Source of the DNA: an uncultured Planctomycetia bacterium
GTDB lineage: Bacteria; Omnitrophota; Gorgyraeia; 2-02-FULL-51-18
DNA length: 57,210 bases
Assembly (NCBI GenBank): GCA_964497635.1
Contig: CAZCDB010000001.1
Span: 1 to 57,210 of the forward strand
Direction: 5' to 3'
Numbering within the stretch: the stretch's first letter is position 1; each line of letters begins with the position of its first letter. Below are positions 1 through 41,957 of the stretch, one piece after another. A program made the position numbers and the translations under genes. The notes under the pieces were generated by a model. That model was not told where the DNA came from, made no database searches, and saw only the letters and a list, made by a program, of their open reading frames with translations.

Positions 1-2
1 AA

Positions 3-3000
3 AAAAATTCACCACTGGATGGGTGGAGCTTACGGTTTCAGAACCAGCAGGGCAAACCCACTACGGTGCCTTTAAATAATCTCAATGGCTATGGGGATAC
101 ACCTCTTGAGGTTGATAGCGTTCTTGAGCTTGTAAGAACCAACGTCCCAGCCGGTTTTCTCCGTATTCAAAATAATACAAATCCTCGTGTGCCATTTGTC
201 GTGAGTGGTGATCCAGATGAGGTGATCCGTTGGGTGATTGGCTTGAGAATTTCAGCACCGGATACACTCATTTATGCTCCTCGTATCGGAATGAGTCCAA
301 TGTTCTTTGATGCGCCGTCAAGGCCGCTTGGAGAGATCCGCAGAACAGATACAGTTTTTGTTGATGAAAATGGCTTCCTCCATCTGATCGCTGATGCTCA
401 AAATGAAGAGTGGAAGCCAATTCTAATTGGTTATAAACGTGTCGATGTGTCAGACCTCCCAACCACCGCGATACCTGATGACCGTGGGGCTAGGCTATCT
501 TCTATTACCAAAGACATGGTCATTTCCTATGGAAAAGAAAGGCAGGAGCCAACGACCGTGAAAGTAACGGTGAAGATAGAGCTCCTAACAGCTGTGGCTG
601 CCCCGCCTAAATTTGAGCTTTTTTACAGAGTTTCAGGATTAGAAGATTTTCTATCGCTGGGCACGATAGAAAATCCTTCACCTGCAGACATGGGCGAGCT
701 TTTAAGCCAATTTGAAGGCACAAGATTTAACCCTTCTTCCTTACCTACACTTGAAGAAAAAATAGCCAAAATGATGAGGGATTTTAAAGTAGCGGTCAAT
801 TCCGGAGCGAGGTTGGCATTAACGTCGGATCTGGAAAATGCAGCCACCTTGGCTAGCGCGAATTTGTTTAGTGAATTCACTTTCAACGTCCCCGGTCAGG
901 GTTCTTTTACGATTTCTGAAAAAGGGGCCAATCTGATGGAGCTTTCGATGGACAAGACGGCGGATCTGCCGGCTCGGGCACTGATCAAGCGGCATGAGAC
1001 CGGGCATGTGGGGTCGTTTTTGATGGCGCCGTTTTCGGGGCGGCAGGTGCGGTATTTAAAGAAAACTGTGAGTGGCAGGGAAGTCACAATCGATCTTGGA
1101 AAACTGCCGGGAGCGGCTCCTTGGAAACCGGCTGGTCACGTTGGAGACGAGCCTTATGTACTGCATGGTTTTTTAAGAAATGCCCGCTGGACTTTGGAGC
1201 CGGGTTCTACGGATAGCTCCGCTACTTTTTCAGTGAAAAATAGCGACATTCCCGTTTCAATCACGGATATTGATGGCGCGGACATCCCCGAAATAAAAAC
1301 CTTGGCCGATATTTTCGGTGATCTTCAGTATCAAGTCACGTATCAGTGGGCGGATGGGAAGTTTGGGATTCTTCCGTCAGTGACCAATCTAGGCACGACG
1401 GAAGCCACCACGGAGCTTAATCACCACCTGACGTTGGATCTGGCGGACTCTGATGCGGGATTGAGCGAGTGGTCAGCGCAAATCGATGCGGTAAAATATC
1501 GTCGGATGAATGATAACAAGATGCCAAAACGCTCTCCCCTGGCGCGAGTGAGGAGCGGTGGAGAATATGATTTTAGAGAGCCTGTGGCTCTTGATCGCCC
1601 CATCGAGGTAGGTCTTGCTGCTTTGGAAGATACCGATGGCATTGTTGAGGGAAGATTTATTCATAAAGGTGGAGAAACCATCTCGCTTAGCTGGGACGCC
1701 GCTACTTTTCCGCAGACTCTTCTCTGGGCGCCCGTGGGACTCAGAGGATTTGAAGGCCGAGCCGGTTTCCAACCCAAAAGCTCTTCTCCCGGTGCCGCAG
1801 GTCTTGAAAAAGCCGGGATCAAAGACGCAAATTTACTTCATCTAAAACCCAACCAGACCATCACGGGAAAAATAGAGATTGGAAGAGCTTTGGTGACGGT
1901 TGCCGCTGCACGGCTATCCAGTGCTTCAGACTCAGAGCCTGAAATCCCTTCACTTGATGATCAGATTGAAGCGTGGAAGAAGAACCATGCTACAGCCCAT
2001 GCGGTATCTAGAATTTTGGTGAATGAAGATGAGAATATACCTCGGATGTTGTTAGAATTTGTAACGAAGAATGTTCTTGGACTAGAACCTAAGGAAGATT
2101 CTGATAAAGTTATTTTAGCCTTAAAATCAGAAGATGCTTGGGACGCTTTTCAAAGCGGATCATTCGACTTTATAGTCACGGACATTAATACAAAGTCGGA
2201 TATTAACGGTATCGATCTTATTCGTCATATCCGCGAGCAAGAGGCTCGTGATCAAGTTCAACAACCTGTCATGATTTTGGTGCAGAGCTCAACACTCAAG
2301 CCAGCGATGAAAGGGCTTGATCTCAAAGAGTTTGGGCCCGATACATTTTATGTTGAGAAGCCTGCGGGAGATGCGATCCAAAAACTATTTGCCGCCGATG
2401 TTGTTTCCGCTGTTACATTTGAAGCAAAGGATGTCTCCATCGGTCAAGTGAATGAAGTGATTGACCAAGCTATTGGCGCAGCCATTAAGTATGCCGATAA
2501 GAAGCAAATGACAGCGATCCGTGTCAATTTTAATGGAAATGAAATTGGGAGGCATACGAGACCATTTAATAAGCAGATACTGTCCAGCAGCGTTATCAAC
2601 CATATTTCCGATCATGTTCGGTCAACACGAGAAGTTTCAATCTATGACATTCATACGGAAAATGCCACGGTGGTGATTACTTCAAAACCTGAGAGCGAAA
2701 GGACTCCTAAGCCTAAAGAGGTGAGGCCAGATCTATGGACTCGAATCTCTAGGTTTGCCTCTAAACTTTGGAAGTCCGCCGGCGCGCGGTTGGTCGATAA
2801 AAAAACCCTGGTTCGATGGACATCTCTTTTGGACAACGAGCCGCTTTTTCATCGGTACTCTTCAGTTTGGAAAGCTCACGATGATTTGGAGGGCGCTCGT
2901 CAGAGACTATTTTCTTTGCTAAAGCCGGGCGAAGAATACGATCCGAATCTACGGGTAACATTAACACCTCTCACAAGCCCCAATGCTGCTATTTCCAATG

Positions 3001-6000
3001 CACATCGTTTGCGTTCACTCACTCCTATTGAACTAAATCGAGAGATCCGGCTTCACAGTTCCAAAGATTTAGCGCTTTCCATCCTTTTGGCTCCGGGTAA
3101 ATTTTTTCTCAACCTCATAGATCGACTGATGGATATGTTATCACCGGATCAGCTGAGCATATTGATGACTACCAAACAGCGTTATAGCGAAGGAGATGCG
3201 GTATTGGTTCAGGTCAGAGTGCTTGAGCAATCGATCATCCCTAAGGAGACTTATATTGCGTGGTTATCCGATTACGGCACCGGTTGGATTCAAGGTAGAG
3301 TCGGAGAGGTCAAAAGTAACGGCAGAGTCCGGATCTTTTTTGGACCTCTGGACAACGATAAAGCTCCCAATCTAGAACTTGATGGAAGCAGTCAAAGTCT
3401 TCAAAAAGCCCCTCGTAATGCGAGGGGTGCCCGGTTGGCGGCGCTTCCTGTGATTGGTGAATTTACGCTCGCGACTGTTCAGAGTCTTGCTGAGGAAAGT
3501 ATTAATGTCCGAACCTATCCTTCAAATGACAAGACCAGTCAAACTTACTTCATCACCACTCAGATGAATCCGGAAAGACTGGAGTATGTTGTGAAATACA
3601 CAAGAAGTGCAAATGGCGATTACTTGGTCCTCTTTCCGCCGAATGGTTTATTAAGAGATCAACAAGGAGAAAAAACAATCTATAAAAGAGATGTTGATGG
3701 CGAAGAATTTGATGGTGTCGTATCGGCTCTTGCGCAGGCGGCCAAGAGAGAGTTGCGTACAGATAATCCAGATGTGCCGGCCATATTATCTTTAAATGAT
3801 CTCATACCCATTGTTGGTGGAGACGGGGCGAGTTTTGAGAGATTTCGGGCGTCTTTTAATGGAGATGGTTTTAACGTTCGTACACATTCAAAGGACACCT
3901 ATAACCTTGTTGTCATTTTTTATGGTACCAGCGAACCTTATTTTGTTTTAAATTTTATCCAAAAAGGAACTCGTTTTGATAGCACACCTGTTGCAAGCCA
4001 GATCTTGCCCTATATCAATCAAGGACACGATAGACAAAATGCTTGGTTTATGCGTGGGCATATGGTTAATAAAATAGAGGGTAGGGAAGTTTACAGGATC
4101 AATGGCGCACGCTTGTCCGCTGATTTTGATGAGCAGATGGATGCCTTGGGAATCGCCCCGCGTCAGGTGACTCATATTTTTCTTAATGATGCTTCCGACA
4201 TTATTCGCCCGCTTTTGGAGAGTGCCATCCGAAGCAGTTTTCCTGAGATTCCAGAGGCGAATATCGTTGTCACCCAGACACCTGCTGACGCGCAGGAAGC
4301 AGTGACTAGACTTTTAAGTCAGCTAGAGACCCCAGGTCAGCTTCTAGTCATCACGGATGTAAATCCATATTCAGCTACAGGAAATGGCTATGATGTGATC
4401 AGGCATCTCAGAGCTTTGGAAAATGAACGTGGTCCTGTAGACCTAGACCAGAGAAATCTCGCTGTGATTACCAGCGTTAACTTCAATGAGACAGCGATTA
4501 TTGCGGAACAAAATAGTAGAAAAGATCTTTTCGCGCTTTATGTTGCAAAAGACAATACCCCCCAACTTTTAGACGCATTAAAGACTAGATTAAGCTCTCC
4601 TGCCGCTGCACGGTTGGCAGCAGCTATTACACTGGATGATAAGATAAAAGCTCTTCGCGAGATCTATTATGGGCTTGATCAAGCACAAATGAGTGACAGT
4701 AATGAAAAGCTTCGCGCACAAGAAGAGGCTATTCGCAAAGGACTTTCCGGGATCGTGAACCAGTCCATCATCAATGTTTTAGTCTCATACAAAAGAGGTA
4801 AAAAAAATACACAAGAAGCGGAAGATTCCTCTGCTAACCATCTCATACGATTGATCGCTCTCAGCTTGATGCAAGCAAAAAAAACTTATGATGTCTCAGA
4901 TCTATTGATGCAGGCTCAAGCGTTAAGAGATAAGAGTGAGCAATTAGATCGCCGGGGGGCTCTTTGGTCGATTAGAAATTTGAATCCCAGAGACCTTGAT
5001 GAAAAGGAGCGCGAAGATGTTGTCCGGGTTTTGCGCGATATCATTGCTGGTCCTGATCAGGATTCGCTGGTTACCGATGATGCTAAAAGCGCTCTTTCTA
5101 GGTCTGTTTCTACTGGTGCAGAAGTTTTAGCGCCAAAAATTATCGACGACACGATTGATTATTTTATAGAGCACCCGAGCAGTGATGGCTATCTAATGTT
5201 TATCCGGCTTGGTCTACGTGCACAGAAAGCTTATCTCCACGTTAAAGAAGCCTTTAGAAGGACTAGTAGGGAGCAATCAAGACACTTGTTGTTACAGGCT
5301 TTATTTGCTGTGACTCCAAATCCAGCCGCAGATTTGAAATCTTACCTAACCAATAGTCAATATGACGCTAGCGGATGGCACGATGATACAGATGGTCGAT
5401 ATTCTTTCGAAAGATCTTTTCTCAATCTTGCTACTTCACATAAGGATCAAGCCAGCGATATTTTATCGGATTACATCAAGGATCAGAAAAATCATTTGGA
5501 ATTGAGAGTTATGGCCGCGCAGGCTCTGGGGGCACTGAAGGAAGATATAGCTTCCTCTTTGCCTGTATTGATTGATTTGCTTGATGAGGTCATGCAGATA
5601 GACAGAACCAGCTATTCATATGCCTTAGAAACCAACTCTAAAATCGTGATTTTTGCGGTGAGTCGAGTCGGCAAAAATAATCCAACTGTTATCGAGAGAT
5701 TTTCTCGTCTTTTGGACGATAGCAATTCCCGTGTTTTGCGAGCAACTTTGGAAGCGCTATCGTACTTGGGCGAACAAGCCAAGCCGCTACTTCCAAAATT
5801 AGAAGTTTTGGCTGTTCGAACAGATCGTTCAGATTTTAAAGATGAAACTTTAGCAACGATTGAGGCTATTAAGTTTGGAAGGATTCGGGATGTATTAATT
5901 GCCGCACGCTTGGCGACGGTAAAGACACCACTCACAGGTTTGCAGCATCGAAGCATTTTTAAAGTGGGAAAAAATCGATTTAAAATAGAATCAGTCAGTG

Positions 6001-7577
6001 ATAACGGGATTACTTTTAAACTGAATGGTAAAGACGGTGTGGCAAAAATAAATACGGTGATTCAGTTGGGAGGAAAAGAAGCCGAAAATAAAGCGACCAT
6101 TCGTATTCTATCGATCAAAGATGGTCTGGTAGATATCGAAGTCGATGCTCCCGCTGAGAAAATCGTAGAGCCTCTTCTTGACAATGAAACTCACTTGATT
6201 GGTAACGGTGCAAAAGAAAATCAGGTAAAAATTTTTGTAAAAACATCTGGGGAGCAGCACGTGATAACGATACGCAATCAATCCAATGCCGCAGTTGCCA
6301 CGATCACAATCAATGCCGCGATCATGGATATTGCAAAACGTGACTTGGTTTTAGACATCGTTGAACAATTGGATAGGGCATTGGCTGGAGTTCCAATAAC
6401 CAGCATGACCTCTTCTCAATATAAGGAAAAAATTGAGCCTGTATTCGAAAAGCTCAAGAGAAAACCAGGCGCTCGTTTAGCGCAAGAGATTTCACCAAGG
6501 CCGTTCAATCTTTTTGGGGCATCTGCAGAACAAACAGAGCCTTTAGATTTGAATCTGGCCGGCGCTCGAATCGCTGCGGCGAATTCAAATAGTATTTCGG
6601 TGGCCGAAAGACTTAAGATTTTGATTTTAACATCGTTTGCAGCGCTGAGCTTTGCGACTTTTGCCTTTGCGGCAGACGGACCCATGACCACGGCCACTAT
6701 TTCGACTGAGGAGGGAGGGCTCTCTCAAGTTCTTACGTTGTCTCCGGGTGATTTGGAAGTTGTTCGAAACGGGGGACTTTTGGACACCCACCATCAAGCT
6801 TTACGCGCCGCCAGGGCTCAAGCCGATACGCTTTTGGAAAAAGCTCTCCCGGTTTGGAGCGATGCTTCTTTCTGGGATGGCTTTGAAACCGCTTTGGCTT
6901 CGACAACTGGAGATCTTAAGAATCTGGATCTTTTTATCCCGCTGTCCGTGGCCTCTTCCAGCGTTGATTTAAAAAAGACGGTGGGCAAAGTGGTAAGCAA
7001 ACTAGAAAAGTTGGGCGCAAAAAGAAATATCAAATTAACTATTTATCTGACCACCAACGGCCAAGACACACCTTTTTATCTGGCTCAACAGATTCAAAAA
7101 ATAAACAGCAGCTTGCCCAATCTTCGCCACGCCGAGGTCCGCTTTCTGGCTTCCCGTCGTGGGACTTTGGCTCAGGATGCGGTGAACACGATCCTTTCTC
7201 GAGCGGATGGGGAGGCTTCCCTTCTCGCCGGCCGGACTCGGGCGATGATCCTTGCGGAAGGTTCGACTGCGGAGCAACTCTCCTCCAGCTTAGGTCCCGT
7301 GACAGATCTTTATGGTAAAAACGTCTCCATCGCAGGCGTTCAGATGCCCGCAACGGAAGCGGAAGCTGAGCTCGCCTCTTACTCCATCGCCAATATGGTT
7401 CTTGTTTCCGCACAAAAAGCTCTGGGCTTGGATCTCTCGATTCTCCCCGCCAGCACTTTTGGGTTTTCGATCGAGCATTTAAGTAACCTCGGCGAAGTTG
7501 TTGTTTTCCGCCTCTTAAGGCTTGATGAAGAACTCAACGCCTTAAAGCTCGCCCGCCAAGCCGAAATCGCCGCTTAA
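3..7577 (+). CDS. Giant multidomain protein, probably 5'-partial (2524 codons visible). Contains two receiver-like domains, HEAT-like repeats and one C-proximal hydrophobic helix.
   Basis: The frame is uninterrupted from nt 3 to TAA at 7575-7577. The ORF track starts at GTG 66, but codons 3-65 in the same frame have no stop, and no purine-rich SD precedes 66. The gene therefore most likely continues upstream of the window. Domain calls come from motif reading of the translation (see sub-features). Confidence 0.85.
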   Translation, partial: KNSPLDGWSLRFQNQQGKPTTVPLNNLNGYGDTPLEVDSVLELVRTNVPAGFLRIQNNTNPRVPFVVSGDPDEVIRWVIGLRISAPDTLIYAPRIGMSPMFFDAPSRPLGEIRRTDTVFVDENGFLHLIADAQNEEWKPILIGYKRVDVSDLPTTAIPDDRGARLSSITKDMVISYGKERQEPTTVKVTVKIELLTAVAAPPKFELFYRVSGLEDFLSLGTIENPSPADMGELLSQFEGTRFNPSSLPTLEEKIAKMMRDFKVAVNSGARLALTSDLENAATLASANLFSEFTFNVPGQGSFTISEKGANLMELSMDKTADLPARALIKRHETGHVGSFLMAPFSGRQVRYLKKTVSGREVTIDLGKLPGAAPWKPAGHVGDEPYVLHGFLRNARWTLEPGSTDSSATFSVKNSDIPVSITDIDGADIPEIKTLADIFGDLQYQVTYQWADGKFGILPSVTNLGTTEATTELNHHLTLDLADSDAGLSEWSAQIDAVKYRRMNDNKMPKRSPLARVRSGGEYDFREPVALDRPIEVGLAALEDTDGIVEGRFIHKGGETISLSWDAATFPQTLLWAPVGLRGFEGRAGFQPKSSSPGAAGLEKAGIKDANLLHLKPNQTITGKIEIGRALVTVAAARLSSASDSEPEIPSLDDQIEAWKKNHATAHAVSRILVNEDENIPRMLLEFVTKNVLGLEPKEDSDKVILALKSEDAWDAFQSGSFDFIVTDINTKSDINGIDLIRHIREQEARDQVQQPVMILVQSSTLKPAMKGLDLKEFGPDTFYVEKPAGDAIQKLFAADVVSAVTFEAKDVSIGQVNEVIDQAIGAAIKYADKKQMTAIRVNFNGNEIGRHTRPFNKQILSSSVINHISDHVRSTREVSIYDIHTENATVVITSKPESERTPKPKEVRPDLWTRISRFASKLWKSAGARLVDKKTLVRWTSLLDNEPLFHRYSSVWKAHDDLEGARQRLFSLLKPGEEYDPNLRVTLTPLTSPNAAISNAHRLRSLTPIELNREIRLHSSKDLALSILLAPGKFFLNLIDRLMDMLSPDQLSILMTTKQRYSEGDAVLVQVRVLEQSIIPKETYIAWLSDYGTGWIQGRVGEVKSNGRVRIFFGPLDNDKAPNLELDGSSQSLQKAPRNARGARLAALPVIGEFTLATVQSLAEESINVRTYPSNDKTSQTYFITTQMNPERLEYVVKYTRSANGDYLVLFPPNGLLRDQQGEKTIYKRDVDGEEFDGVVSALAQAAKRELRTDNPDVPAILSLNDLIPIVGGDGASFERFRASFNGDGFNVRTHSKDTYNLVVIFYGTSEPYFVLNFIQKGTRFDSTPVASQILPYINQGHDRQNAWFMRGHMVNKIEGREVYRINGARLSADFDEQMDALGIAPRQVTHIFLNDASDIIRPLLESAIRSSFPEIPEANIVVTQTPADAQEAVTRLLSQLETPGQLLVITDVNPYSATGNGYDVIRHLRALENERGPVDLDQRNLAVITSVNFNETAIIAEQNSRKDLFALYVAKDNTPQLLDALKTRLSSPAAARLAAAITLDDKIKALREIYYGLDQAQMSDSNEKLRAQEEAIRKGLSGIVNQSIINVLVSYKRGKKNTQEAEDSSANHLIRLIALSLMQAKKTYDVSDLLMQAQALRDKSEQLDRRGALWSIRNLNPRDLDEKEREDVVRVLRDIIAGPDQDSLVTDDAKSALSRSVSTGAEVLAPKIIDDTIDYFIEHPSSDGYLMFIRLGLRAQKAYLHVKEAFRRTSREQSRHLLLQALFAVTPNPAADLKSYLTNSQYDASGWHDDTDGRYSFERSFLNLATSHKDQASDILSDYIKDQKNHLELRVMAAQALGALKEDIASSLPVLIDLLDEVMQIDRTSYSYALETNSKIVIFAVSRVGKNNPTVIERFSRLLDDSNSRVLRATLEALSYLGEQAKPLLPKLEVLAVRTDRSDFKDETLATIEAIKFGRIRDVLIAARLATVKTPLTGLQHRSIFKVGKNRFKIESVSDNGITFKLNGKDGVAKINTVIQLGGKEAENKATIRILSIKDGLVDIEVDAPAEKIVEPLLDNETHLIGNGAKENQVKIFVKTSGEQHVITIRNQSNAAVATITINAAIMDIAKRDLVLDIVEQLDRALAGVPITSMTSSQYKEKIEPVFEKLKRKPGARLAQEISPRPFNLFGASAEQTEPLDLNLAGARIAAANSNSISVAERLKILILTSFAALSFATFAFAADGPMTTATISTEEGGLSQVLTLSPGDLEVVRNGGLLDTHHQALRAARAQADTLLEKALPVWSDASFWDGFETALASTTGDLKNLDLFIPLSVASSSVDLKKTVGKVVSKLEKLGAKRNIKLTIYLTTNGQDTPFYLAQQIQKINSSLPNLRHAEVRFLASRRGTLAQDAVNTILSRADGEASLLAGRTRAMILAEGSTAEQLSSSLGPVTDLYGKNVSIAGVQMPATEAEAELASYSIANMVLVSAQKALGLDLSILPASTFGFSIEHLSNLGEVVVFRLLRLDEELNALKLARQAEIAA
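2010..2394 (+). other. CheY-like receiver (REC) domain 1 inside the giant ORF
   Basis: The REC landmark residues appear in order: RILVNEDE (beta1 acidic pair), FDFIVTDINTKSDINGIDLIRHIR (beta3 Asp plus alpha3), PVMILVQSS (beta4 Ser) and FYVEKP (beta5 Lys-Pro). Confidence 0.6.
4167..4592 (+). other. CheY-like receiver (REC) domain 2 inside the giant ORF
   Basis: HIFLNDASD (beta1), LLVITDVNPYSATGNGYDVIRHLR (beta3 Asp), LAVITSV (beta4 Thr/Ser) and YVAKDN (beta5 Lys). Order and spacing match REC domain 1. Confidence 0.55.
5490..5890 (+). other. HEAT/PBS-lyase-like helical repeats inside the giant ORF
   Basis: Repeated pattern of the type RVMAAQALGALKEDIASSLPVLIDLLDE ... SNSRVLRATLEALSYLGEQAKPLLPKLEVL, typical of HEAT_2-type repeats. 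Confidence 0.5.
6615..6674 (+). other. Single hydrophobic helix, a TM anchor or internal signal-peptide-like segment, in the giant ORF
   Basis: KILILTSFAALSFATFAFAADGP: a basic residue, about 18 hydrophobic residues and an AFA-AD motif like a signal peptidase I site. It is the only such segment in the visible 2524 aa. Confidence 0.6.
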
Positions 7578-7606
7578 TCAGCCTTGTAAGCAACTTTACA
7601 CCCCTC

Positions 7607-7666
7607 TTGACTCTACCTCATTTCGTAGTATACTTTAAGTATCGATAGATATTTCGTAATACGAAA
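7607..7666 (+). promoter_or_regulatory. sigma70-type promoter plus palindromic operator of vapBC
   Basis: TTGACT (7607-7612), 16-nt spacer, TATACT (7629-7634). Perfect palindrome TTTCGTA-A-TACGAAA at 7652-7666, and a direct repeat of ATTTCGTA at 7620 and 7651. AAGAGG SD lies before ATG 7677. Confidence 0.65.
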
Positions 7667-7676
7667 AGAGGTTCTT

Positions 7677-7889
7677 ATGTCCCAAGTGCTTGTGTCGACC
7701 AAATACCAGGTGGTCATCCCCAAAGATGTTCGCCAGCAAATGGAGATACGTCCGGGTCAGAAGATGAGCTGTATCGCGATCGGAAATGTGATCCATCTGG
7801 TGCCCGCTAGACCCCTGTCAAGCCTGAGAGGTTTTATTAAACCGGTGTCGCTTAAGGATCTCAGGGAAAAGAAAGATAGGGTCTTGTGA
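7677..7889 (+). CDS. vapB: AbrB/MazE/SpoVT-fold antitoxin (VapB-like)
   Basis: 70 aa. The N-terminal motif KYQVVIPKDVRQQMEIRPGQKM is the typical swapped-hairpin AbrB-type DNA-binding motif. It overlaps the downstream PIN gene by 4 nt (GTGA). Confidence 0.85.
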   Translation: MSQVLVSTKYQVVIPKDVRQQMEIRPGQKMSCIAIGNVIHLVPARPLSSLRGFIKPVSLKDLREKKDRVL

Positions 7890-8275
7890 TCGTCGTCGAT
7901 TCCTCCGGCTGGATGCACTACTTTATGAACGGTGACTTGGCGGAATCCTACGCCCAGCATCTTTCGAAGCCCGATCGAGTATTGACGCCGACAGTTATAT
8001 TATATGAAGTCTTCAAAAAGATTCAGCGTGAGTACGGACGAGAAGAGGCCTCTGTGGCCGCGGCCGAGATTGAAAAGACACAACTTGTCCCGTTTTCTTC
8101 GCAGATGGCATATCACGCGGCCGACATTTCGTCTCAGTATCACCTAAGTCTGGCAGATTCCATGATCTACGCGACCGCTCATTTTTATGGCGCTAAACTT
8201 GTGACTAGTGACGCGGACTTTAAAGATCTGCCCAATGTCGTTTTTTTAAATCCAACAGAACCTGGTTTAGATTAA
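7886..8275 (+). CDS. vapC: PIN-domain ribonuclease toxin (VapC-like)
   Basis: 129 aa. IVVDSSGW (first acidic residue), LTPTVILYEV, LSLADSMIYATA and LVTSDADF give the PIN acidic quartet pattern. It is coupled to the upstream antitoxin. Confidence 0.85.
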   Translation: MIVVDSSGWMHYFMNGDLAESYAQHLSKPDRVLTPTVILYEVFKKIQREYGREEASVAAAEIEKTQLVPFSSQMAYHAADISSQYHLSLADSMIYATAHFYGAKLVTSDADFKDLPNVVFLNPTEPGLD

Positions 8276-8282: not shown

Positions 8283-8960
8283 ATGGCTAAGAATTTTCTA
8301 ATAGCAGTTCCTTTTGCAGACAATACACCTGTTGTGGCCGTCCGTCGTGCCACAAAAGAGGGGATGGGGGTGGCGGAGCTTCGGGTGGATCTTTTTTCTT
8401 CTTATGAAATTGCTCACGTTCTGAATGAAGCGCGTAAATTTAAAAAAATATCTACCATCGCTACTATTCGTTCCAAAAAAGAAGGGGGGCAGTGGAAAGG
8501 CTCTGAAGCTCAGCGGTTGGAGCTTTTTAAAGTACTACTCCCTTTTGTGAATACGATCGATATCGAGCTGAGCTCTCAAAAAATTATTCAGCCGGTCATC
8601 GCCGAAGCGCGTCGTCTAAAAAAGAAAGTGATTGTCTCGTATCATCATTTTCAAAAGACGCCCAGCCGTCCGGCCCTTGAGACTATTTTTAAAAAAGCCA
8701 AAGCCGCCGGAGCCGACATCGTCAAAATCGCGGTGATGGCTCGCTCCAAAAAGGATGTCAAAAGCCTGGCGGAGTTTACGGTTGCACACGCAAAAGCCGG
8801 GGTGATTACCCTTTCCATGGGCAAAGAGGGCGAGATTTCGCGGATTTTATTTCCCCTGTTAGGGTCCCGACTGACTTTTGCTCATATGGGGCGCTCAAGT
8901 GCTCCCGGACAGATGGATCTTAAGACCACCACCCGCCTGCTTAAAAAATTATACGCCTAA
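8283..8960 (+). CDS. aroD: Type I 3-dehydroquinate dehydratase
   Basis: GVAELRVDLF, ATIRSKKEGG, IDIEL, VSYHHFQKTP, GADIVKIAVMA (Schiff-base Lys context) and ITLSMG are AroD class I motifs. Confidence 0.8.
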   Translation: MAKNFLIAVPFADNTPVVAVRRATKEGMGVAELRVDLFSSYEIAHVLNEARKFKKISTIATIRSKKEGGQWKGSEAQRLELFKVLLPFVNTIDIELSSQKIIQPVIAEARRLKKKVIVSYHHFQKTPSRPALETIFKKAKAAGADIVKIAVMARSKKDVKSLAEFTVAHAKAGVITLSMGKEGEISRILFPLLGSRLTFAHMGRSSAPGQMDLKTTTRLLKKLYA

Positions 8961-20127: not shown

Positions 20128-20598
20128 GTGTCAAGGACTGACCCCAGAAAGGTTTTTTTGACATTGCTTCTGGGGGCTGTTTTTATTACAGCGCACCCTC
20201 TTGGTTTGCCTAAGTCATTGAATTTGTTCTTGTGGAGCTGCTTGAATAAAGTGGGGCTGGATATTTCAATGACTCCACTGACTTTTGATATGATGATGAT
20301 GTATGACTCGGGTAAGAAGTTGAACATCTATAAATACAAAATAGATGTGATTTATAGATCTGAAAGTGGCGATAAGATCATTCCAGGGAGAGCCCTTTCT
20401 TTTTACGGTTTTAAAGTTCCTGCCATTTTATTTTCTGAGATGTGCCGAGCGGGCATTGATACAAGCTGCTTCATTTATGCTATGAGCTATTACCTGAAGA
20501 AGCAGTATGGCCCTGGTACTGAATTTATGATCCATGTGAATACCGATGAGGAGGGTGTGAAATCATACGGTTTAAATATTTTTTACCCATGTTTTTAA
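20128..20598 (+). CDS. Hypothetical protein with a hydrophobic N-terminus; partner of the HTTM::DCC gene
   Basis: GTG start, 156 aa. N-terminal VFLTLLLGAVFITAHPLG is signal or anchor-like. It overlaps the next gene by 10 nt. I recognise no family. Confidence 0.45.
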   Translation: MSRTDPRKVFLTLLLGAVFITAHPLGLPKSLNLFLWSCLNKVGLDISMTPLTFDMMMMYDSGKKLNIYKYKIDVIYRSESGDKIIPGRALSFYGFKVPAILFSEMCRAGIDTSCFIYAMSYYLKKQYGPGTEFMIHVNTDEEGVKSYGLNIFYPCF

Positions 20599-21821
20599 AA
20601 AAATATTTAATTAAAAATAAGTCGGAAATAAAAGAGGCTACACCCTACGAAATCATTCTTTTTAGGGTCTGCTTTGGTCTTTATCTTGCTTATTATAATT
20701 TAAGTCTTGTTCCAGATCTGTTAAGTTATTTCGGGCCATCGAGCATGTTTCGTCCAGAGCTGTGTCATTTCTTGCAACCCTCTCTTTTATTTGTTTTTTG
20801 GAGCCCTGTTGGAATTTGGTCTTTTTTTATTTTAATGATGGGTTTAATTTTTTTATTTATCACAGGATTTTGTACCCGATATTTTGTATGGATCCTTTGG
20901 GCCCTCCAAGTTTCATTTTACAACGCGAATCCCATAATTATTCATGAGCCGCAGCAATTAGCCAACCTTTTGCTCCTTTTCTTTTTTTTCCTTCCCCTAG
21001 GAAACCAATGTAAAGAAAATGAGATAGAGGGAGCTCAAGATCTAGTTCGTCTATTAGTATTTTTTCTTAGCATTTATTATTTGATGGCGGGTTTAAAAAA
21101 GTTGCCAGACCCACTTTGGCAGCAAGGGACCGGTATCTCTTATATCCTTTCATGGGAGGCTCTTGGAAAGGATAACATCCTTACTCGTTTTATCATTGGT
21201 TGTGTTCCTATCGGCCGATTGCTAAATTACGGTACACTGGTCTTTGAAATTAGCTTTATTTTTCTTATTTTCACTCGATTCAAGCCTTTATTGGTGCTAA
21301 CGGCTTTTTTGTTCCAATTCATGATTTTTCTTACATTGGATGTCGGTAGCTTTCCATGGATTATGATAGCGTGGCAAGTTTTATTGTTAGATATTGAAAC
21401 AAGAAAAAAATATGGTATTTTTTTTCAAAAACTGAGGCAGCGCTTTAAAGGATTGTGCCCAATTTCAAGGATTGACACCCTTGTGCTCATTGATGGGGAT
21501 TGTGATCTGTGCAGTAATATTCCGGCATTTACGTCGAGATGCGATCCAGACAATCGTATTAAATTTATTGCTTTACAATCTCCCGCAGGGCAACAACTCC
21601 TCTTCCAACATCGCTTACCAACCGCGGATTTTAATTCTTTTGTTTTGATTGAAAATGGGGAAGTGTTCACAAAATCTACCGCGGCATTAAAGTATTTTAA
21701 GAGATTAAATTTTCCCTGGTCACTTTTATATATTTTTATTATTCTTCCAAATCCAATTCGTGATTTTTTTTATGATTTCGTGGCAAAGAACAGGTATCGA
21801 TGGTTTAGAATTAGAAACTAA
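20589..21821 (+). CDS. Fusion of an HTTM-like polytopic membrane domain with a DCC/DUF393 thiol-disulfide oxidoreductase domain
   Basis: The N-terminal 290 aa are multi-TM and start with the HTTM-like motif YEIILFRVCFGLYLAYY. The C-terminal LIDGDCDLCSNIPAF ... FVAKNRYRWF matches the DCC (DxxCxxC) family. Confidence 0.7.
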   Translation: MFLKKYLIKNKSEIKEATPYEIILFRVCFGLYLAYYNLSLVPDLLSYFGPSSMFRPELCHFLQPSLLFVFWSPVGIWSFFILMMGLIFLFITGFCTRYFVWILWALQVSFYNANPIIIHEPQQLANLLLLFFFFLPLGNQCKENEIEGAQDLVRLLVFFLSIYYLMAGLKKLPDPLWQQGTGISYILSWEALGKDNILTRFIIGCVPIGRLLNYGTLVFEISFIFLIFTRFKPLLVLTAFLFQFMIFLTLDVGSFPWIMIAWQVLLLDIETRKKYGIFFQKLRQRFKGLCPISRIDTLVLIDGDCDLCSNIPAFTSRCDPDNRIKFIALQSPAGQQLLFQHRLPTADFNSFVLIENGEVFTKSTAALKYFKRLNFPWSLLYIFIILPNPIRDFFYDFVAKNRYRWFRIRN

Positions 21822-23214
21822 GAACCGCTTGGCTGCCGAAAAATTGGCGGTCTTCGGCATGGTCGTTGAGAGGGGATTGGCGGATCAGGACGTAATCGTC
21901 AAAACCGTATTCTAGCTTCAGAAGTGTGTTGGGGTTGGGTCGATAGCCAAGGCCGATGGAAAAACGGGTTAGCTGGCTGACATCATCCCCAAAAGAGGCT
22001 ACGCCATCAGAGTAAGGGCCTCCCTCAAAATGATAACCTTCGCTTTCGCTGAAGGTGCCGATACCGCTGTAGCGAGCTACAAGATAGAGCTGGTCATTGA
22101 TGCGATAAAGGGGCTCGATAGCAAAGTAAGTCAGATCGCGATTGAAGGTCCCATCCTGATCCTCAATAAAAACCTGGCCTCCAAAGACGCCCAGCTGAGC
22201 CTTGTCTTGATGAAAAAATGTAGCGGCTAGTTCATAGGCCAGCGGATCGATGATACCTGAGGTGCTGGTTCCAAGTGTTGAAAAACGCCCACCAGTGCCT
22301 ACAGGCTCCAATATGTTTCCGCCAAAAACTTGGCTGGAAGCGGTTGTATCTCCCGTACGACTTGCACTGGCAGCCAAATATAAAAATTCTGTAGGCTTGC
22401 CTTGGATACGACCCACAATCATCTTGTCAGAGTCATCGTCAAGACCGCGTGTGTTGGAACCATCCATCACCGCTAGCTGCCAACCCACTCCTCGCCACTG
22501 ACCATAAAGCTCAATCCCTTCATCAACCCCTGAGGGCCAAGGCACGTCATTAGTGATCAGGGGATTATCGACTGCGTCTTCCCACAGCTTTCCTTCGCCA
22601 TAAGGGATATCCAGGCGGCCTATTTTGATCCCCATTCCGCCGTCATTTTCATCTGCAAAAATATTTTTGAAACGCGCATAAATCTCACGAGTTCCAAGAT
22701 CTTGCCTTGTCTCGGAGCCAAGCCGCACCACTTCAACTTCGGTAAAAAAGTTTACGTTTTCCCAGACTCTCGCGTCAATAAATAGGGTGGCCTGATAACT
22801 GAGGAAGCCTCCATTTTCACGTTCGGCGTCTTGACCTGTGATTGCATACCCGGCAGCTCCAAAACCACTTAAATCAATACGACGGAACCATTCCTGACTC
22901 GAGGATAAGGAGGATAAATTTCCATAAGAGTTGGTCAGCACGCTCGGTGGCGCTTCGCGTTCTGATAAATCAACGCTTTTAGGGGGTGCTTGCGTATAGG
23001 CGGGTGTTTTGGAGGTCTCGTATTTTTGAGTCGTGCCCTCAAACTTTTGCACCCGCTCATAGAGTTCACGGATCAACTGATCCTGACGATCAATCCGGGC
23101 TTTCTGCTCCTCAACAATTTTTTTAAGATCAGAAACATCATCAGCCAATACTGGGCCAGAAAAAAGAAGAAATGAGGAGAGGAGGGCGAGCGTTGTTTTT
23201 TTCAAGAAGGTCAA
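21811..23214 (-). CDS. Porin-like outer-membrane beta-barrel protein with an N-terminal coiled coil
   Basis: Signal peptide MTFLKKTTLALLSSFLLFSGPVLA-DD and a coiled segment KKIVEEQKARIDRQDQLIRELYERV. Alternating amphipathic strands follow, with a terminal aromatic residue (QAVLSF). Confidence 0.65.
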   Translation of the reverse strand: MTFLKKTTLALLSSFLLFSGPVLADDVSDLKKIVEEQKARIDRQDQLIRELYERVQKFEGTTQKYETSKTPAYTQAPPKSVDLSEREAPPSVLTNSYGNLSSLSSSQEWFRRIDLSGFGAAGYAITGQDAERENGGFLSYQATLFIDARVWENVNFFTEVEVVRLGSETRQDLGTREIYARFKNIFADENDGGMGIKIGRLDIPYGEGKLWEDAVDNPLITNDVPWPSGVDEGIELYGQWRGVGWQLAVMDGSNTRGLDDDSDKMIVGRIQGKPTEFLYLAASASRTGDTTASSQVFGGNILEPVGTGGRFSTLGTSTSGIIDPLAYELAATFFHQDKAQLGVFGGQVFIEDQDGTFNRDLTYFAIEPLYRINDQLYLVARYSGIGTFSESEGYHFEGGPYSDGVASFGDDVSQLTRFSIGLGYRPNPNTLLKLEYGFDDYVLIRQSPLNDHAEDRQFFGSQAVLSF

Positions 23215-25373
23215 AATGCCGCGACGATTCGGTCGCGGCCGCCTTGTTTGGCGGTGTAGAGCGAGCTGTCGGCAGTTTGCAAAACTTCTTTGCCGGTGGC
23301 TCCGTTGATTGGATAGAGACCTACGCCTACAGAAAAAGAAACGGGGCGAAGAATTTTATCACCATATTTTATCTGTAAAGCTTTTACACCCACCCTTAGC
23401 TCTTCAGCTTTTTGACGAGTGTTTTCGTTGGTGGCTTGTGGCAGAATCACAACAAATTCTTCTCCCCCATAACGGCAGATGATATCCCCATGGCGGCATT
23501 TCATCTGGAGGTACCTTGCAACTTCAACCAGTACAACGTCACCGGCTTCATGTCCTTCTGAGTCATTAAATTTTTTAAAGAGGTCAATGTCAATCATGAT
23601 AACGCCTACCATGATGTTCTGGCGTTTGGCACGAGAGATCTCAATTTCCATGGATTCTTCCATGTAGCGGCGGTTAAAAAGGCCGGTGAGTGGATCTCGA
23701 ACTGATTCGATTTCAAGGCGTCCCCTTAGTTTTACGTTAGAAAGCGCCAGACTTGTGTGTTTGGCAATCGTACCGATGAGGTGCTGATTTTCAATATGAA
23801 TATCTTCTTTTTTTGGAGGAAAGAGACTTAAAATCCCCATATTGCCACTGAGAGCCGTCAATGAAACGCAAATGTACCCTGGGGGGAGAACTTCTCCACG
23901 AAGATGCTGACAATTAATCACAGCCTTGGAAGCATCATCTACCACGTGAATGCCCGCGCGCCTAAGAGCCACACAGTCATCCGGAGAAAAAACATCTTTT
24001 TCAGAAGGAGGGTTTCCCCAAGTGGCAGCAACTTCCACTGTGTTTCCTGTGGGTCCTATTGCTGCGATAAAACCAGACCATTCTGGGAAAAGGCGTTGCG
24101 TGATGCTGATCACGGCCCGGTGAATCTCCTCTTTAGAGGTACATGTTTGAAGGACGTCATCCAGCTCGCTCAAGAGAGAGGCTTCGAGATTTCTTCGCTC
24201 CAGTTGAGCTACCCAATCCTGAAGCTTATGGTTGGTATTATCCAATTCTTCGGTGCGTTGGCGGACTTCACTCTCAAGTCCTTTGGAGTAGCCGGCTAAA
24301 ACTGTGTTGGCATTTCGCAGGTCTTTAATCATACGATTAAAAGACTCCGTGAGTTCTCCAATCTCATCATTGGAACGCACCTCAAGGTTTTGATCAAGGT
24401 TTCCACGCGCTACTTCATTGGCGCAGATGGCCAGCTGTCGAATGGGGCTTGAGATGCTGCGCGCAGTCAGAAAGCTAACCACAAACGATATGAGGGCTGC
24501 AATAAAACCAATCAAAATCAAAGTCAGCTGAAGACTTCGATAATAAATTGCTAGTGAACGATTGAGTGAAATCATTAATATATACATGATCCCGTTATCG
24601 TTAAAGTCTCCTTTAAAAGGGGAAACAATAGCCAATTGTTTTTCGCCCGCCAGACTGAATTCTTGTGGTGCAGCCATCGAAGAAAGAGAGTCTTGTTGAT
24701 TCAGAAGTTCTTGGAAGCCTTCAGCTTCAGAACGAGAACCGGAGCTGGCTAGAAGAGTTTTGTTGAAGGAAAAGGCAATATGACTTTCAGCCATATTATG
24801 AAATTTCTTGGCAAAGGCATCATCCATGCGATACCCAGCCCAAAGGACGCCATAAACCGCGCCATCAGAGGTGATGGGCATTGAAATCACCTGGTAAAGC
24901 TTACCTCCAACGATTTCCAGGGCGGCATATTCTTTGCCTTCAAGGGCCAACCGGACTCCTTTTTCACCGGATAAGTCATCTCCGTAGTAGCCTGGGTCAT
25001 GGGCGCGAGTCGTGACAATACCCTTTGAATCAATAACAGCAAATACATCGTAGTTGACCACTTCCTGCATTTCTTTCAAGGTAAAGAGGACGGTTTCTCG
25101 GTCAATCCCGGGGGTCACGATGACGCTTTTTAAGCGGGGGGACTCAGCAATCAGACGCAGATTTAGCTTGATCGTTTGGAAGCGCTCACTCATAAAGTTA
25201 TCGAAGGTCAGTCGTGTTTCTGATAACTCACTACGGATTTTATCGGACATCGTATTTCGAGCGCTAAAGTAAAGAGCTAGAAGTGTTAGGACAAGTACCG
25301 CACAAAGCGCTGAGCAGATGCTGACAAAAATCTTAGTATTGAGATTGGCTTTAGAAGAGGTTTTTTCTTTCAT
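23211..25373 (-). CDS. Membrane sensor diguanylate cyclase: periplasmic Cache-like domain, HAMP, GAF-like region and GGDEF
   Basis: Two TM segments flank a ~250-aa periplasmic region. HAMP motif (PIRQLAICANEVARGNLD...IGELTESFNRM), and GGDEF domain with RYGGEEF and an RHGD I-site 5 residues upstream. 4-nt overlaps with both neighbours. Confidence 0.85.
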   Translation of the reverse strand: MKEKTSSKANLNTKIFVSICSALCAVLVLTLLALYFSARNTMSDKIRSELSETRLTFDNFMSERFQTIKLNLRLIAESPRLKSVIVTPGIDRETVLFTLKEMQEVVNYDVFAVIDSKGIVTTRAHDPGYYGDDLSGEKGVRLALEGKEYAALEIVGGKLYQVISMPITSDGAVYGVLWAGYRMDDAFAKKFHNMAESHIAFSFNKTLLASSGSRSEAEGFQELLNQQDSLSSMAAPQEFSLAGEKQLAIVSPFKGDFNDNGIMYILMISLNRSLAIYYRSLQLTLILIGFIAALISFVVSFLTARSISSPIRQLAICANEVARGNLDQNLEVRSNDEIGELTESFNRMIKDLRNANTVLAGYSKGLESEVRQRTEELDNTNHKLQDWVAQLERRNLEASLLSELDDVLQTCTSKEEIHRAVISITQRLFPEWSGFIAAIGPTGNTVEVAATWGNPPSEKDVFSPDDCVALRRAGIHVVDDASKAVINCQHLRGEVLPPGYICVSLTALSGNMGILSLFPPKKEDIHIENQHLIGTIAKHTSLALSNVKLRGRLEIESVRDPLTGLFNRRYMEESMEIEISRAKRQNIMVGVIMIDIDLFKKFNDSEGHEAGDVVLVEVARYLQMKCRHGDIICRYGGEEFVVILPQATNENTRQKAEELRVGVKALQIKYGDKILRPVSFSVGVGLYPINGATGKEVLQTADSSLYTAKQGGRDRIVAAF

Positions 25374-30603: not shown

Positions 30604-31335
30604 ATGGCGATCCTTCTGTTTATTCTCCTCCACTGGTATCTAGCGGCTTTTTGTCAGACGGTGTATTTGCATCGATACGCGTCGCATCAGATGTTTACAA
30701 TGACACGTTTTTGGGAGCGCGTGTTTTACGTCCTCACCTTCATCACTCAAGGGTCTTCTTATCTCAATCCTCGCGCTTATGCTCTAATGCATCGGATGCA
30801 TCATGCTTATAGCGATACAACAAGCGATCCTCACTCTCCTGTTTTTTTTAAAAGTCCTGTCCGGATGATGCTTAACACATTGAAGGTCTATCTAGATTTA
30901 TATTCCAATAAAATTCAGCCCGAGCCAAAATTTGAGGGCGGGTACCCCGAGTGGCCGGTGTTTGATCGGTGGGCCAATCTTTTGGGAGTGCGATTTCTCT
31001 GGATTGTCGCGTATATCGCTTTTTATGTCTATTTCGCGACGGCGTGGTGGCAGTTTTTGTTGATCCCTATCCACATTTTTATGGGACCAATCCATGGGGC
31101 GATCGTCAACTGGTGCGGTCACCGCTACGGCTATGCCAATCACGACAATCGTGATCAATCCAAAAACACCCTCTCGGTCGATCTATTGACCATGGGGGAG
31201 CTGATGCAAAATAATCATCACCGGGATACCCAGAGAGTTAACTTTGCCCATCGTTGGTTTGAGTGGGATCCGACGTACTTCTTGCTTCGGATCCTTCACC
31301 GGGCTAAAGTGCTCCGTTTTAGCAGGTCTCAGTAA
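30604..31335 (+). CDS. Short membrane fatty-acid desaturase family protein
   Basis: His boxes HRYASH, HRMHHAYSDTTSDPH and NNHH. It starts 3 nt after the regulator stop. Confidence 0.8.
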   Translation: MAILLFILLHWYLAAFCQTVYLHRYASHQMFTMTRFWERVFYVLTFITQGSSYLNPRAYALMHRMHHAYSDTTSDPHSPVFFKSPVRMMLNTLKVYLDLYSNKIQPEPKFEGGYPEWPVFDRWANLLGVRFLWIVAYIAFYVYFATAWWQFLLIPIHIFMGPIHGAIVNWCGHRYGYANHDNRDQSKNTLSVDLLTMGELMQNNHHRDTQRVNFAHRWFEWDPTYFLLRILHRAKVLRFSRSQ

Positions 31336-32126
31336 TGTCCACTTTTCACTTGGCTTGCCTTTTGGGAGTGATGTTTGTTTTTATTTTCATGATTTTTTTG
31401 TGGGTTTTACAGCTGAAAACAAAAAATGCGGGCGTTGTCGATCTAGGGTGGACTCTCTCGTTGGTGGTTTTGGTGGTCTCTTATGCGGTGGCGGCGCCCG
31501 GAGCATTTCAGCGTAAGTTTTTGATTGTCGGCATGGTGCTGTGCTGGGGACTGCGATTGGCTTCTCATATTTACCGACGGATACAAAAAGAAGTCCATGA
31601 AGATCACCGCTATCAGAGCATGAGGCAAGCTCTGGGGAATAAGGCTCCTTTCTTTTTTCTCCTCTTTTTTCTTTTTCAAGCGGTGGTGGCGGTGGCGATT
31701 TCGCTGCCGTTTTACCTAGCGTCTAAAAATCCAGATCCAAAGCTTTATCCCGTGGAAGTGATCGCTTTAATTTTATGGGGGATTGCTTTCACGGGTGAGA
31801 CCATCGCAGATGCTCAGCTGCGTGGTTTTAAACACGATCCCGCCAATCGTGGCAAAGTCTGTGAGGTGGGTCTTTGGAACTATTCGCGGCATCCCAACTA
31901 TTTTTTTGAATGCCTTATCTGGATCAGTTATTTTCTGGTGGCGTCGGCGTCTCCCGGGGGAATTTACGCATTGGTCAGTCCGGTACTCATGATTTTTTTT
32001 ATTGTGAAGGTGAGCGGCGTACCTCCGGCGGAAGCACAGTCTCTGGCTTCGCGTGGAGAAGCTTACCGACGCTATCAAGCCTCCACCTCTGTCCTAATTC
32101 CCTGGTTTAAGAAAAATAAGGTATGA
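31335..32126 (+). CDS. DUF1295 / steroid-5-alpha-reductase-like membrane protein
   Basis: Multi-TM, with C-terminal GLWNYSRHPNYFFECLIW typical of DUF1295/ICMT-like proteins. TAATG overlap with the upstream gene. Confidence 0.75.
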   Translation: MSTFHLACLLGVMFVFIFMIFLWVLQLKTKNAGVVDLGWTLSLVVLVVSYAVAAPGAFQRKFLIVGMVLCWGLRLASHIYRRIQKEVHEDHRYQSMRQALGNKAPFFFLLFFLFQAVVAVAISLPFYLASKNPDPKLYPVEVIALILWGIAFTGETIADAQLRGFKHDPANRGKVCEVGLWNYSRHPNYFFECLIWISYFLVASASPGGIYALVSPVLMIFFIVKVSGVPPAEAQSLASRGEAYRRYQASTSVLIPWFKKNKV

Positions 32127-39013: not shown

Positions 39014-39029
39014 GTCTGATTGTTCTTTG

Positions 39030-39068
39030 AAAGCCAGGCCCTTACCCAGGGCCTGGCTTTCATTCTTT
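39030..39068 (+). terminator. Rho-independent terminator after the PKD gene
   Basis: Perfect 12-bp stem AAAGCCAGGCCC / GGGCCTGGCTTT with a 7-nt loop (39030-39060), followed by CATTCTTT. Confidence 0.6.
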
Positions 39069-39079
39069 GTGGAGCTTAA

Positions 39080-41821: not shown

Positions 41822-41895
41822 GTGCCCGTAGCTCAATTGGATAGAGCGCTTCCCTCCGAAGGAAGAGGTTGATGGTTCGACCCCATTCGGGCACA
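41822..41895 (+). tRNA. tRNA-Arg (anticodon CCG)
   Basis: Hand-folded cloverleaf: acceptor GTGCCCG/CGGGCAC, D arm GCTC-AATTGGATA-GAGC, anticodon arm CTTCC-CTCCGAA-GGAAG and T arm GATGG-TTCGACC-CCATT. No encoded CCA. Confidence 0.9.
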
Positions 41896-41905
41896 CGGTT
41901 TTAGC

Positions 41906-41934: not shown

Positions 41935-41957
41935 AACACCCTTTAGCATGCAAGGGC

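Follow-up and report, generated by a model that had tools for sequence, protein, structure and literature searches.

This study concerns a giant gene at the edge of a DNA stretch from an uncultured Omnitrophota bacterium, namely positions 1 to 57,210 of contig CAZCDB010000001.1 (GenBank assembly GCA_964497635.1), hereafter called the window. The reading frame at 3..7577 on the forward strand runs past the contig edge at its 5' end and is the 3' part of this gene. Translation of 3..7700 gave 2,524 sense codons, none of them for cysteine, before the first stop at 7575–7577, and the visible chain is divided by ten copies of a short motif, [GA]AR[LI], into 11 modules; we tentatively read its product as polyprotein-like. 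The mechanical list of open reading frames (ORFs) gives the first-start version of the frame as 66..7577; codons 1–21, which precede GTG 66, are also open, and no AGGAGG-like Shine-Dalgarno sequence was seen upstream of that GTG. The original prediction, made from the letters of the window, had described the frame in the same way and had expected the protein to be larger than its visible part, and the gene of the closest relative indeed encodes at least 7,620 amino acids (aa).

The 7.6-kb sequence of the giant gene was recovered base for base in four other assemblies, namely ENA ERZ3430528 (metaSPAdes) and Logan SRR7369912, SRR7369907 and SRR7369913; therefore, a one-off chimera is excluded; chimeric assembly was among the outcomes that the prediction had named as refuting it. 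No internal DNA repeats were found in the gene, and as its frame has no stop under the standard code, recoded stop codons are irrelevant to it. Its upstream part was not recovered, as an exact-protein lookup led to the same contig elsewhere, always ending at the same base. Contigs built by different assemblers (ENA metaSPAdes and Logan; L001 and L002) stop exactly at base 1 of the window, inside the giant gene, where the sequence reads AAAAAAATTC (window 1–10), and the 26-kb contig of a relative likewise ends within its own giant gene. Since the break falls at the same base whatever the assembler, it suggests upstream branching, i.e., population-level variation of strains or modules, rather than a simple repeat.

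The motif [GA]AR[LI] starts at aa 162, 268, 635, 927, 1142, 1368, 1535, 1967, 2156 and 2187. Against these ten copies in 2,524 aa, 2,000 composition-preserving shuffles averaged 0.37 copies and never exceeded 4, a test that excludes low complexity or a composition artefact as the origin of the motif; in the 16,509 aa of the other ORFs of the window, one copy was present. The motif Leu is followed by Ala in five of the ten sites, by Ser in three and by Val in one, and the single site with Ile in place of Leu also continues with Ala. The stricter form [GA]ARL[AS] has eight copies in the visible giant protein; as a background, frames from outside Omnitrophota gave 10 copies in 425,633 aa, and other frames from Omnitrophota gave 5 in 83,467 aa. 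Among the frames scanned, two or more copies were found solely in giant ORFs. A logo over 40 instances gave G28/A12, A40, R40, L40 and A30/S8 with flanks that are not conserved, and the hydrophobic fraction around the motif (−5 to +10) was 0.17–0.23 compared with 0.32 overall. Across instances, Gly and Ala are each encoded by four codons and Arg and Leu each by six, with all residues varied among the ten window sites. Because the codons vary at every motif residue, the sequences indicate that the constraint acts on the motif peptide. A repeat or recombination site at the DNA level is ruled out as the origin of the motif by the varied codons and by a gene free of DNA repeats.

The modules between the motif copies are unrelated to one another, and none dominates: one mutarotase-like module, two receiver (REC) domains, one HEAT array and six orphan modules are present in the window. 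The 5'-truncated M0 (3..485, aa 1–161) is an orphan that ends just ahead of motif 1, GARLS (486–500), which opens the orphan M1 (486..803, 106 aa). Motif 2, GARLA (804–818), leads into M2 (804..1904, 367 aa), which is probably galactose-mutarotase/aldose-1-epimerase-like: Pfam Aldose_epim matched it at E 0.008, it shows weak homology to one module of P0001, the giant protein of the closest relative (27% identity in alignment), and the joint profile of both matched mutarotase-like PDB chains exclusively, with 3os7 as the best at E 0.01. Motif 3, AARLS (1905–1919), opens M3 (1905..2780, 292 aa), in which the first receiver, REC1 (approximately 2007–2372), is followed by about 135 aa without a match. 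Two orphans come next, M4 (2781..3425, 215 aa) after motif 4, GARLV (2781–2795), and M5 (3426..4103, 226 aa) after motif 5, GARLA (3426–3440). The second receiver, REC2 (approximately 4167–4592), makes up most of M6 (4104..4604, 167 aa; motif 6, GARLS, 4104–4118). It is followed by the all-helical M7 (4605..5900, 432 aa; motif 7, AARLA, 4605–4619), which holds the HEAT/ARM segment (approximately 5427–5894), and by the orphan M8 (5901..6467, 189 aa; motif 8, AARLA, 5901–5915), beta-rich and then helical in a low-confidence model. Motif 9, GARLA (6468–6482), starts the mini-module M9 (6468..6560, 31 aa), recognised by alignment and phmmer, with a ..FG.S..D.. core, and motif 10, GARIA (6561–6575), starts the terminal module M10 (6561..7574, 338 aa), defined by homology to relatives. 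M10 consists mainly of a signal-peptide-like helix (6615–6674) and an alpha/beta domain of about 300 aa, which ends in ..LARQAEIAA-COOH.

The orphan modules and the terminal domain gave no significant match when Pfam, NCBIfam and PDB were searched by sequence or by profile. The whole protein returned nothing at E<=1e-3 from an index of 5.8 billion proteins, in which the terminal-module alignment also found nothing; scans of genome_contigs and metagenome_contigs gave no relatives of the whole protein, and scans of metagenome_contigs and viral_contigs gave none of the terminal-module alignment. Thus, the earlier statement that most of the sequence matches nothing recognisable was supported by family, structure, protein and contig searches alike.

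Concerning the receivers, two segments with the full set of CheY landmarks had been claimed, and the two fared differently. REC1 (aa ~669–790) matched Pfam Response_reg (PF00072) with 29.0 bits (E 1.3e-6) when its module was scanned alone, a score below the gathering cut-off of 30.2 bits; its PDB matches were CheY proteins (E 0.003–0.02). The alignment of REC1 and REC2 together with E. coli CheY by hhalign (83% probability, E 8.6e-6) placed 'FIVTD' of REC1 on 'FVISD' of CheY, which contains D57, and 'YVEKP' on 'YVVKP' (K109-P110), so that the predicted Asp and Lys correspond to D57 and K109; both residues are also found in REC2. For REC2 (aa ~1389–1530), no Pfam match of its own was obtained at E<=5, and its assignment is based solely on similarity to REC1 (26–27% identity, blastp E 9e-5) and on the landmark residues, which are kept in the pairwise alignment. 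In a single-sequence AlphaFold model (mean pLDDT, the predicted local distance difference test, 36), strands and helices alternate along REC2, with pLDDT values of only 50–60. Both resemble CheY-like single-domain regulators (PF00072) in the acidic end of beta1, the Asp of beta3, the Ser/Thr near beta4 and the Lys of beta5, and M6 has the size of a stand-alone receiver. They differ from such regulators in being embedded in a giant ORF, where REC1 lies under the Pfam cut-off and REC2 escapes detection. The search for a nearby histidine kinase or Hpt protein, which the prediction had advised, found neither in the 57-kb window; the sole signalling gene there encodes a dCache-HAMP-GGDEF protein (23211–25373).

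The HEAT-like array predicted earlier was confirmed, as HEAT_2 (PF13646) matched two stretches of M7, scanned alone, with 34.4 bits against a cut-off of 27.7. Arm, HEAT and HEAT_PBS gave further sub-threshold matches in M7, the segment is all-helical in the low-confidence model, and aa 1812–1965 were matched by generic HEAT proteins in a search of 1.84 billion proteins. At the level of sequence profiles, the HEAT assignment is solid.

The hydrophobic helix at 6615–6674 (aa 2206–2224) proved to be the sole segment of the visible protein with a Kyte-Doolittle value above 1.5 (19-mer maximum 2.07), as had been predicted. Its reading as a membrane anchor that leaves the bulk of the protein inside and about 300 aa outside is open to doubt. 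The helix lies 19 residues past the last motif and consists of a basic n-region and an 18-residue h-region followed by AFA↓A (the arrow marks the cut), its end being ..KILILTSFAALSFATFAFA↓ADG; from these features, it looks like a Sec signal peptide rather than a mid-protein anchor. Only in the window protein and in that of relative L007 is this helix strongly hydrophobic; in P0001 it is weaker. As the corresponding segment of some homologues has little hydrophobicity or bears charges, the bulk-inside topology is uncertain.

The lineage had been guessed as Omnitrophota, and this was upheld by PurB, which is 90–91% identical to proteins on contigs of Omnitrophota metagenome-assembled genomes (MAGs); its 16 best matches were from Omnitrophota or from mislabelled 'Planctomycetia' MAGs, and Omnitrophota MAGs were found at 75–91% identity. 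The entries L005, L006, L008–L010, L013–L015 and L019 (PurB 76–91%) carry the title 'uncultured Planctomycetia bacterium', a public label that is probably taxonomically wrong. The relatives of the giant gene were reached through the neighbouring purB gene, and a long ORF was found at the same position upstream of purB in eight of them. By tblastn and phmmer, homology to the giants of the relatives was confined to the last ~340–380 aa. M10 matched L006 (E 2e-45), P0001 (1e-29), P0002 (7e-29) and L018 (1e-5) and had no Pfam or PDB match, and an exhaustive HMMER search of 1.84 billion representatives yielded just four proteins with the terminal module, P0001 being one of them. M9 is conserved at the same place in relatives, more weakly (phmmer to P0001, E 0.002). 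P0001 is the long form of the L005 gene, and by coordinate arithmetic it also reaches the contig end. The syntenic giants (L005–L020) all end in a small-residue tail (-IAA, -SAA or -SSA), and the end of the terminal module (window 7545–7574) is a conserved helix plus tail, e.g., ..L[RK]LA[RK]QAEIAA, ..QLTSAA or ..QATQSAA, which resembles C-terminal recognition tags.

The motif was present in all syntenic giants except L017, mostly in repeated form, with 19 copies in the 7,620 aa of P0001, nine in L013 and seven each in L007 and L020; the giants with a repeated motif upstream of purB are those of L005/P0001, L007/P0002, L013, L016 and L020. Compared with the relative whose PurB is 91% identical, M10, M9 and, weakly, M2 have homologues, and the other window modules have no counterpart. 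The comparison indicates that module content turns over fast while the connector and the terminal module persist, and varied modules on a common connector are the pattern that would be expected for cargo cassettes. The modules of the relatives are complete ordinary cytoplasmic proteins: hexokinase, Pyr_redox_2 oxidoreductase, S-adenosylmethionine-dependent methyltransferase, GlpX fructose bisphosphatase, 4-alpha-glucanotransferase, DnaJ, His_Phos_1, adenylate kinase (ADK), glutamate dehydrogenase, FHA, inositol monophosphatase, a metallo-beta-lactamase fold, cNMP-binding domains and 2-Hacid_dh. One of the hexokinase modules matched plant hexokinases alone in the index of 5.8 billion proteins. 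Domains end 7–8 residues before a motif, as shown by the hexokinase profile of L007 (end at aa 1431, motif at 1439), the hexokinase of L005 (415 and 422) and the glutamate dehydrogenase of L020 (832 and 840), and the following domain begins 25–45 aa past it. In the complete relative P0002, strong hydrophobic helices lie 9 and 24 residues past motifs. P0002 aa 1–594 (L007 2520–4301) belong to the only apparently complete family member, in which a signal peptide and an orphan domain of ~550 aa without a PDB or NCBIfam match come first, followed by two motifs and two transmembrane helices. The frame is open through all modules, over 7.6 kb in the window gene and 22.9 kb in P0001, and continuous translation appears to be under selection.

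The absence of cysteine is the second property of the chain. The visible giant protein has none in 2,524 residues, and from the average of 1.18% in the 42 other genes of the window, the probability of this is about 9e-14. Cysteine is likewise absent from P0001 (7,620 aa), L013, L006 and L016–L020. L007/P0002 contains three cysteines, all in its N-terminal part, and the cysteine-free span includes enzyme modules that normally contain this residue. Since there is no cysteine, the visible part cannot hold an embedded cysteine peptidase such as C39.

The giant ORF is the 3' end of a multi-enzyme or multi-module giant gene of Omnitrophota, and its REC and HEAT content is unsurprising. The original prediction had called receivers inside a giant protein unusual; this did not stand, as a preprint of June 2026 on multi-enzyme Omnitrophota giants lists PF00072 in 105 giant proteins and HEAT as scaffold content (Nielsen & Lui 2026, bioRxiv 10.64898/2026.06.07.730766). 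The multi-enzyme class described there includes hexokinase and methyltransferase and has a strong membrane bias. The gene studied here shares with these giants the phylum, many unrelated Pfam domains (hexokinase, methyltransferase, REC, HEAT), a mostly unique sequence, frequent truncation by contig ends, and membrane or signal segments (Nielsen & Lui 2026; West-Roberts 2023; Seymour et al. 2023, PMC10066038). It differs in that the catalogue threshold is 10,000 aa, whereas the part in view has 2,524 aa and the best relative at least 7,620 aa, and in that its terminal module is without a family assignment. The same three reports mention no recurrent inter-module motif, no defined cleavage points and no cysteine avoidance; new elements are the motif as a delimiter, the avoidance of cysteine and a terminal module that is conserved among relatives. 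Post-translational cleavage of Omnitrophota giants was already suspected, with the cleavage points unknown (West-Roberts et al. 2023, bioRxiv 10.1101/2023.11.21.568195).

We propose, as a plausible reading that stops short of being probable, that the product is a polyprotein-like chain in which the motif serves as a recognition site, most likely for a protease. In this model, the cysteine-free chain would consist of unrelated, independently folding units, each closed by [G/A]-A-R-L-[A/S] in a short hydrophilic stretch, and the visible ones would be a mutarotase-like unit, a pair of CheY-like receivers, a HEAT array, several orphans and, at the end, a unit specific to the family that carries the signal-peptide-like helix. 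An endoprotease encoded elsewhere would read the pentapeptide and cut the single translation product into at least 11 pieces; cleavage after Leu would leave Ala or Ser as the new N-terminus, each receiver would become a single-domain CheY-like protein, and the final cut would yield an ordinary Sec-type pre-protein. Somewhat more doubtful is the wider proposal that [G/A]-A-R-L-[A/S] marks the cleavage points of Omnitrophota giants, with housekeeping enzymes, regulators and Sec-exported proteins made as virus-style polyproteins cut by a dedicated protease, and with cysteine purged for processing or for the handling of an unfolded chain.

The open frame, the lineage, the enrichment of the motif and its conservation as a peptide, the module content, the lack of cysteine and the conserved terminal module are observed; cleavage at the motif, the position of the cut and the enzyme responsible are what we infer here. 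The motif is held at every junction while its surroundings diverge, and a five-residue block with small residues flanking Arg-Leu has what would be the footprint of a protease site (S4–S1'). By the bacterial N-end rule, an N-terminal Arg or Leu destabilises a product. Cleavage after Leu would be favoured because the new N-terminus is then Ala or Ser, while a cut before Arg or Leu would expose destabilising residues. The protease domain of MARTX toxins has the same preference for Leu at P1 and a small residue at P1' (PMC2780291). The R-2 rule of the mitochondrial processing peptidase provides a second analogy for cleavage at the motif. Helices 9–24 aa past motifs stand where the signal sequence of a separate protein would be expected.

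Precedents for such processing resemble the giant chain in part. Among viral polyproteins, short sites are cut by picornavirus 3C, by coronavirus Mpro at L-Q↓S/A/G and by alphavirus nsP2 at G-A↓. As in the proposed model, one ORF yields many mature proteins there, and its otherwise unrelated units are set apart by a conserved site of 4–6 residues with small residues at the cut; in contrast, these viruses carry their own protease, whereas the gene in question is chromosomal, lies by aroD and pur genes and has no detected protease module. Bacterial surface polyproteins, such as Porphyromonas RgpA/Kgp/HagA, cut at Arg/Lys, and Mycoplasma hyopneumoniae P97/P102, cut at S/T-X-F↓X-D/E, are likewise large precursors cut at recurrent short motifs in disordered stretches. 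They are secreted adhesins or proteases with another motif, and not chains of cytoplasmic-type enzymes. The self-processing Omnitrophota giants embed a C39 or S8 peptidase (West-Roberts 2023), which distinguishes them from the visible 2,524 aa, P0001 and the other relatives.

Several observations weigh against the polyprotein-like reading. A candidate protease was not found in the 57-kb window, nor was a peptidase domain, including C39 and S8, in the visible 2,524 aa, P0001 or the other relatives; the support for cleavage is indirect and drawn from sequence, and we know of no bacterial precedent for cytoplasmic polyproteins of housekeeping enzymes. For a motif of five residues, a role in docking or as a hinge is just as conceivable. 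Single-sequence AlphaFold models of aa 620–1560 and 1535–2524 (mean pLDDT 36 and 40) are too poor to place the motifs in exposed linkers, and the helix after the last motif is charged and not conserved in L006 and L008. Finally, of 41 motif instances, 20 have TTG for Leu (background 20%, p 4e-5) and 15 have CGG for Arg (background 15%, p 5e-4). This skew may reflect a further or different constraint, on the nucleotides or on the rate of translation.

A chain that stays uncut is the strongest of the alternatives, and we regard it as rather unlikely while taking it seriously. The giant would then be an intact multi-enzyme, multi-regulator assembly at the inner membrane, with the pentapeptide as a hinge or as a docking site for a chaperone or membrane receptor, and with REC domains that switch neighbouring modules. 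The original prediction of a huge cytoplasmic scaffold is close to this; it overlooks the ten motif copies and the self-contained modules, and the uncleaved scaffold persists as a rival to processing. The conserved continuous frame, the lack of a protease gene in the window and the HEAT arrays, which are typical scaffolds, would all suit it, and Nielsen & Lui read the giants as anchored in the inner membrane, their regulatory and metabolic parts facing the cytoplasm. However, passive linkers are not normally fixed to one exact pentapeptide while flanks and modules turn over, the signal-like helices just past motifs and the completeness of each enzyme module better fit separable units, and the anchor helix is not conserved in L006 and L008.

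Improbable, in our judgement, is export of the chain or its modules, which would leave the cell unfolded, or enter that of a host or prey, and be processed there in the manner of MARTX (multifunctional autoprocessing RTX) toxins, which deliver several effector domains and cut themselves in the linkers after Leu. Total avoidance of cysteine is typical of proteins secreted unfolded, such as RTX proteins and autotransporter passengers, and the avoidance here is complete (P about 1e-13, and none in the 7,620 aa of P0001). MARTX toxins are comparable in being chains of several thousand residues with swappable unrelated modules, linkers cut after Leu and a content that varies among strains (PMC2780291, PMC2900308 and general knowledge). 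The MARTX cysteine protease domain cuts exclusively after leucine, a preference that Leu followed by Ala/Ser would fit (PMC2780291), and Omnitrophota are suspected predators or symbionts (PMC10066038). In contrast, the RTX repeats and the cysteine protease domain (C80) activated by inositol hexakisphosphate have no counterpart here (no such Pfam match at E<=1), nor do the type I secretion genes of MARTX systems, and toxin modules are replaced by housekeeping-type enzymes and regulators without cysteine. The modules of the relatives (hexokinase, fructose bisphosphatase, glutamate dehydrogenase, adenylate kinase, DnaJ) are core cytoplasmic proteins dependent on ATP or NAD(P)H, and the genome fragment encodes full purine synthesis and lipopolysaccharide export, so the organism is not obviously host-dependent.

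Slightly less credible still is a role of the motif in translation, either by making ribosomes pause on rare Arg codons between modules, to the benefit of co-translational folding, or as an internal TTG start from which modules could be made separately. The share of TTG among the Leu codons (49% of instances) and of NGG (CGG or AGG) among the Arg codons (24 of 41) would agree with it, and Ala or Ser after Leu would permit removal of an initiator Met. However, internal initiation is not a general function, because 12 of the 41 sites use Leu codons unable to initiate; moreover, the last window site has Ile (ATC). At the Gly and Ala positions the amino acid is conserved and codon use is unbiased, a Shine-Dalgarno sequence at the right distance was not found, and separate translation would tolerate stops between modules, of which none occurs in 7.6–22.9 kb.

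There is next to no chance that the gene is an artefact, be it of chimeric assembly, of decay to a pseudogene or of a frame left open by accident, an idea that its place at a contig end and the empty search of 5.8 billion proteins might invite, since 2,524 stop-free codons at 46% G+C cannot be chance, the identical sequence occurs in five assemblies from at least four runs, a homologous terminal module and the same motif occupy the same genomic position in other species, and no internal DNA repeats point to a mis-join.

The flanking genes in the window are chromosomal housekeeping genes, among them a vapBC-like pair, aroD, purB, purS/Q/L/F/M/D/E, glyA and LptFG. The AbrB/MazE-type antitoxin and PIN (VapC-like) toxin lie directly 3' of the giant gene (7677–8275), and L007 has them at the same position (8354–8946). 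No nearby protease or secretion system was found in the window. Two ORFs are without a Pfam match, at 20128–20598 on the forward strand (156 aa) and at 21811–23214 on the reverse strand (467 aa); the latter also has no cysteine and adjoins the dCache-HAMP-GGDEF diguanylate cyclase mentioned above. A lipid-modification cluster (30604–36964), preceded by a MarR regulator, comprises a fatty-acid desaturase, DUF1295, two cyclopropane-fatty-acid-synthase-like methyltransferases, an amine-oxidase flavoprotein, DUF1365 and a chalcone-isomerase-like protein. At 37781–40825, four PKD domains are found in one protein, and the next one is AsmA/YhdP-like (581 aa, no cysteine), both with diderm envelope functions, and four tRNA genes (Arg-CCG, Lys-CTT, Leu-TAG and Gly-GCC) lie at 41822–42803.

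Giant genes take a large share of small Omnitrophota genomes, and the questions about them concern their function and whether their products act as one chain or as many pieces; the lack of information on cleavage points blocked the analysis of West-Roberts et al. With a short conserved delimiter, such proteins can be divided into analysable units in silico, a direct proteomic test becomes available, and there is a bait for whatever enzyme or partner recognises the motif. A further constraint, likewise testable, is that cysteine is avoided completely along thousands of residues, and together the motif and this avoidance make the question of giant-protein processing directly testable. If the polyprotein-like reading is true, it would be the first case known to us of bacterial polyprotein expression for core metabolism.

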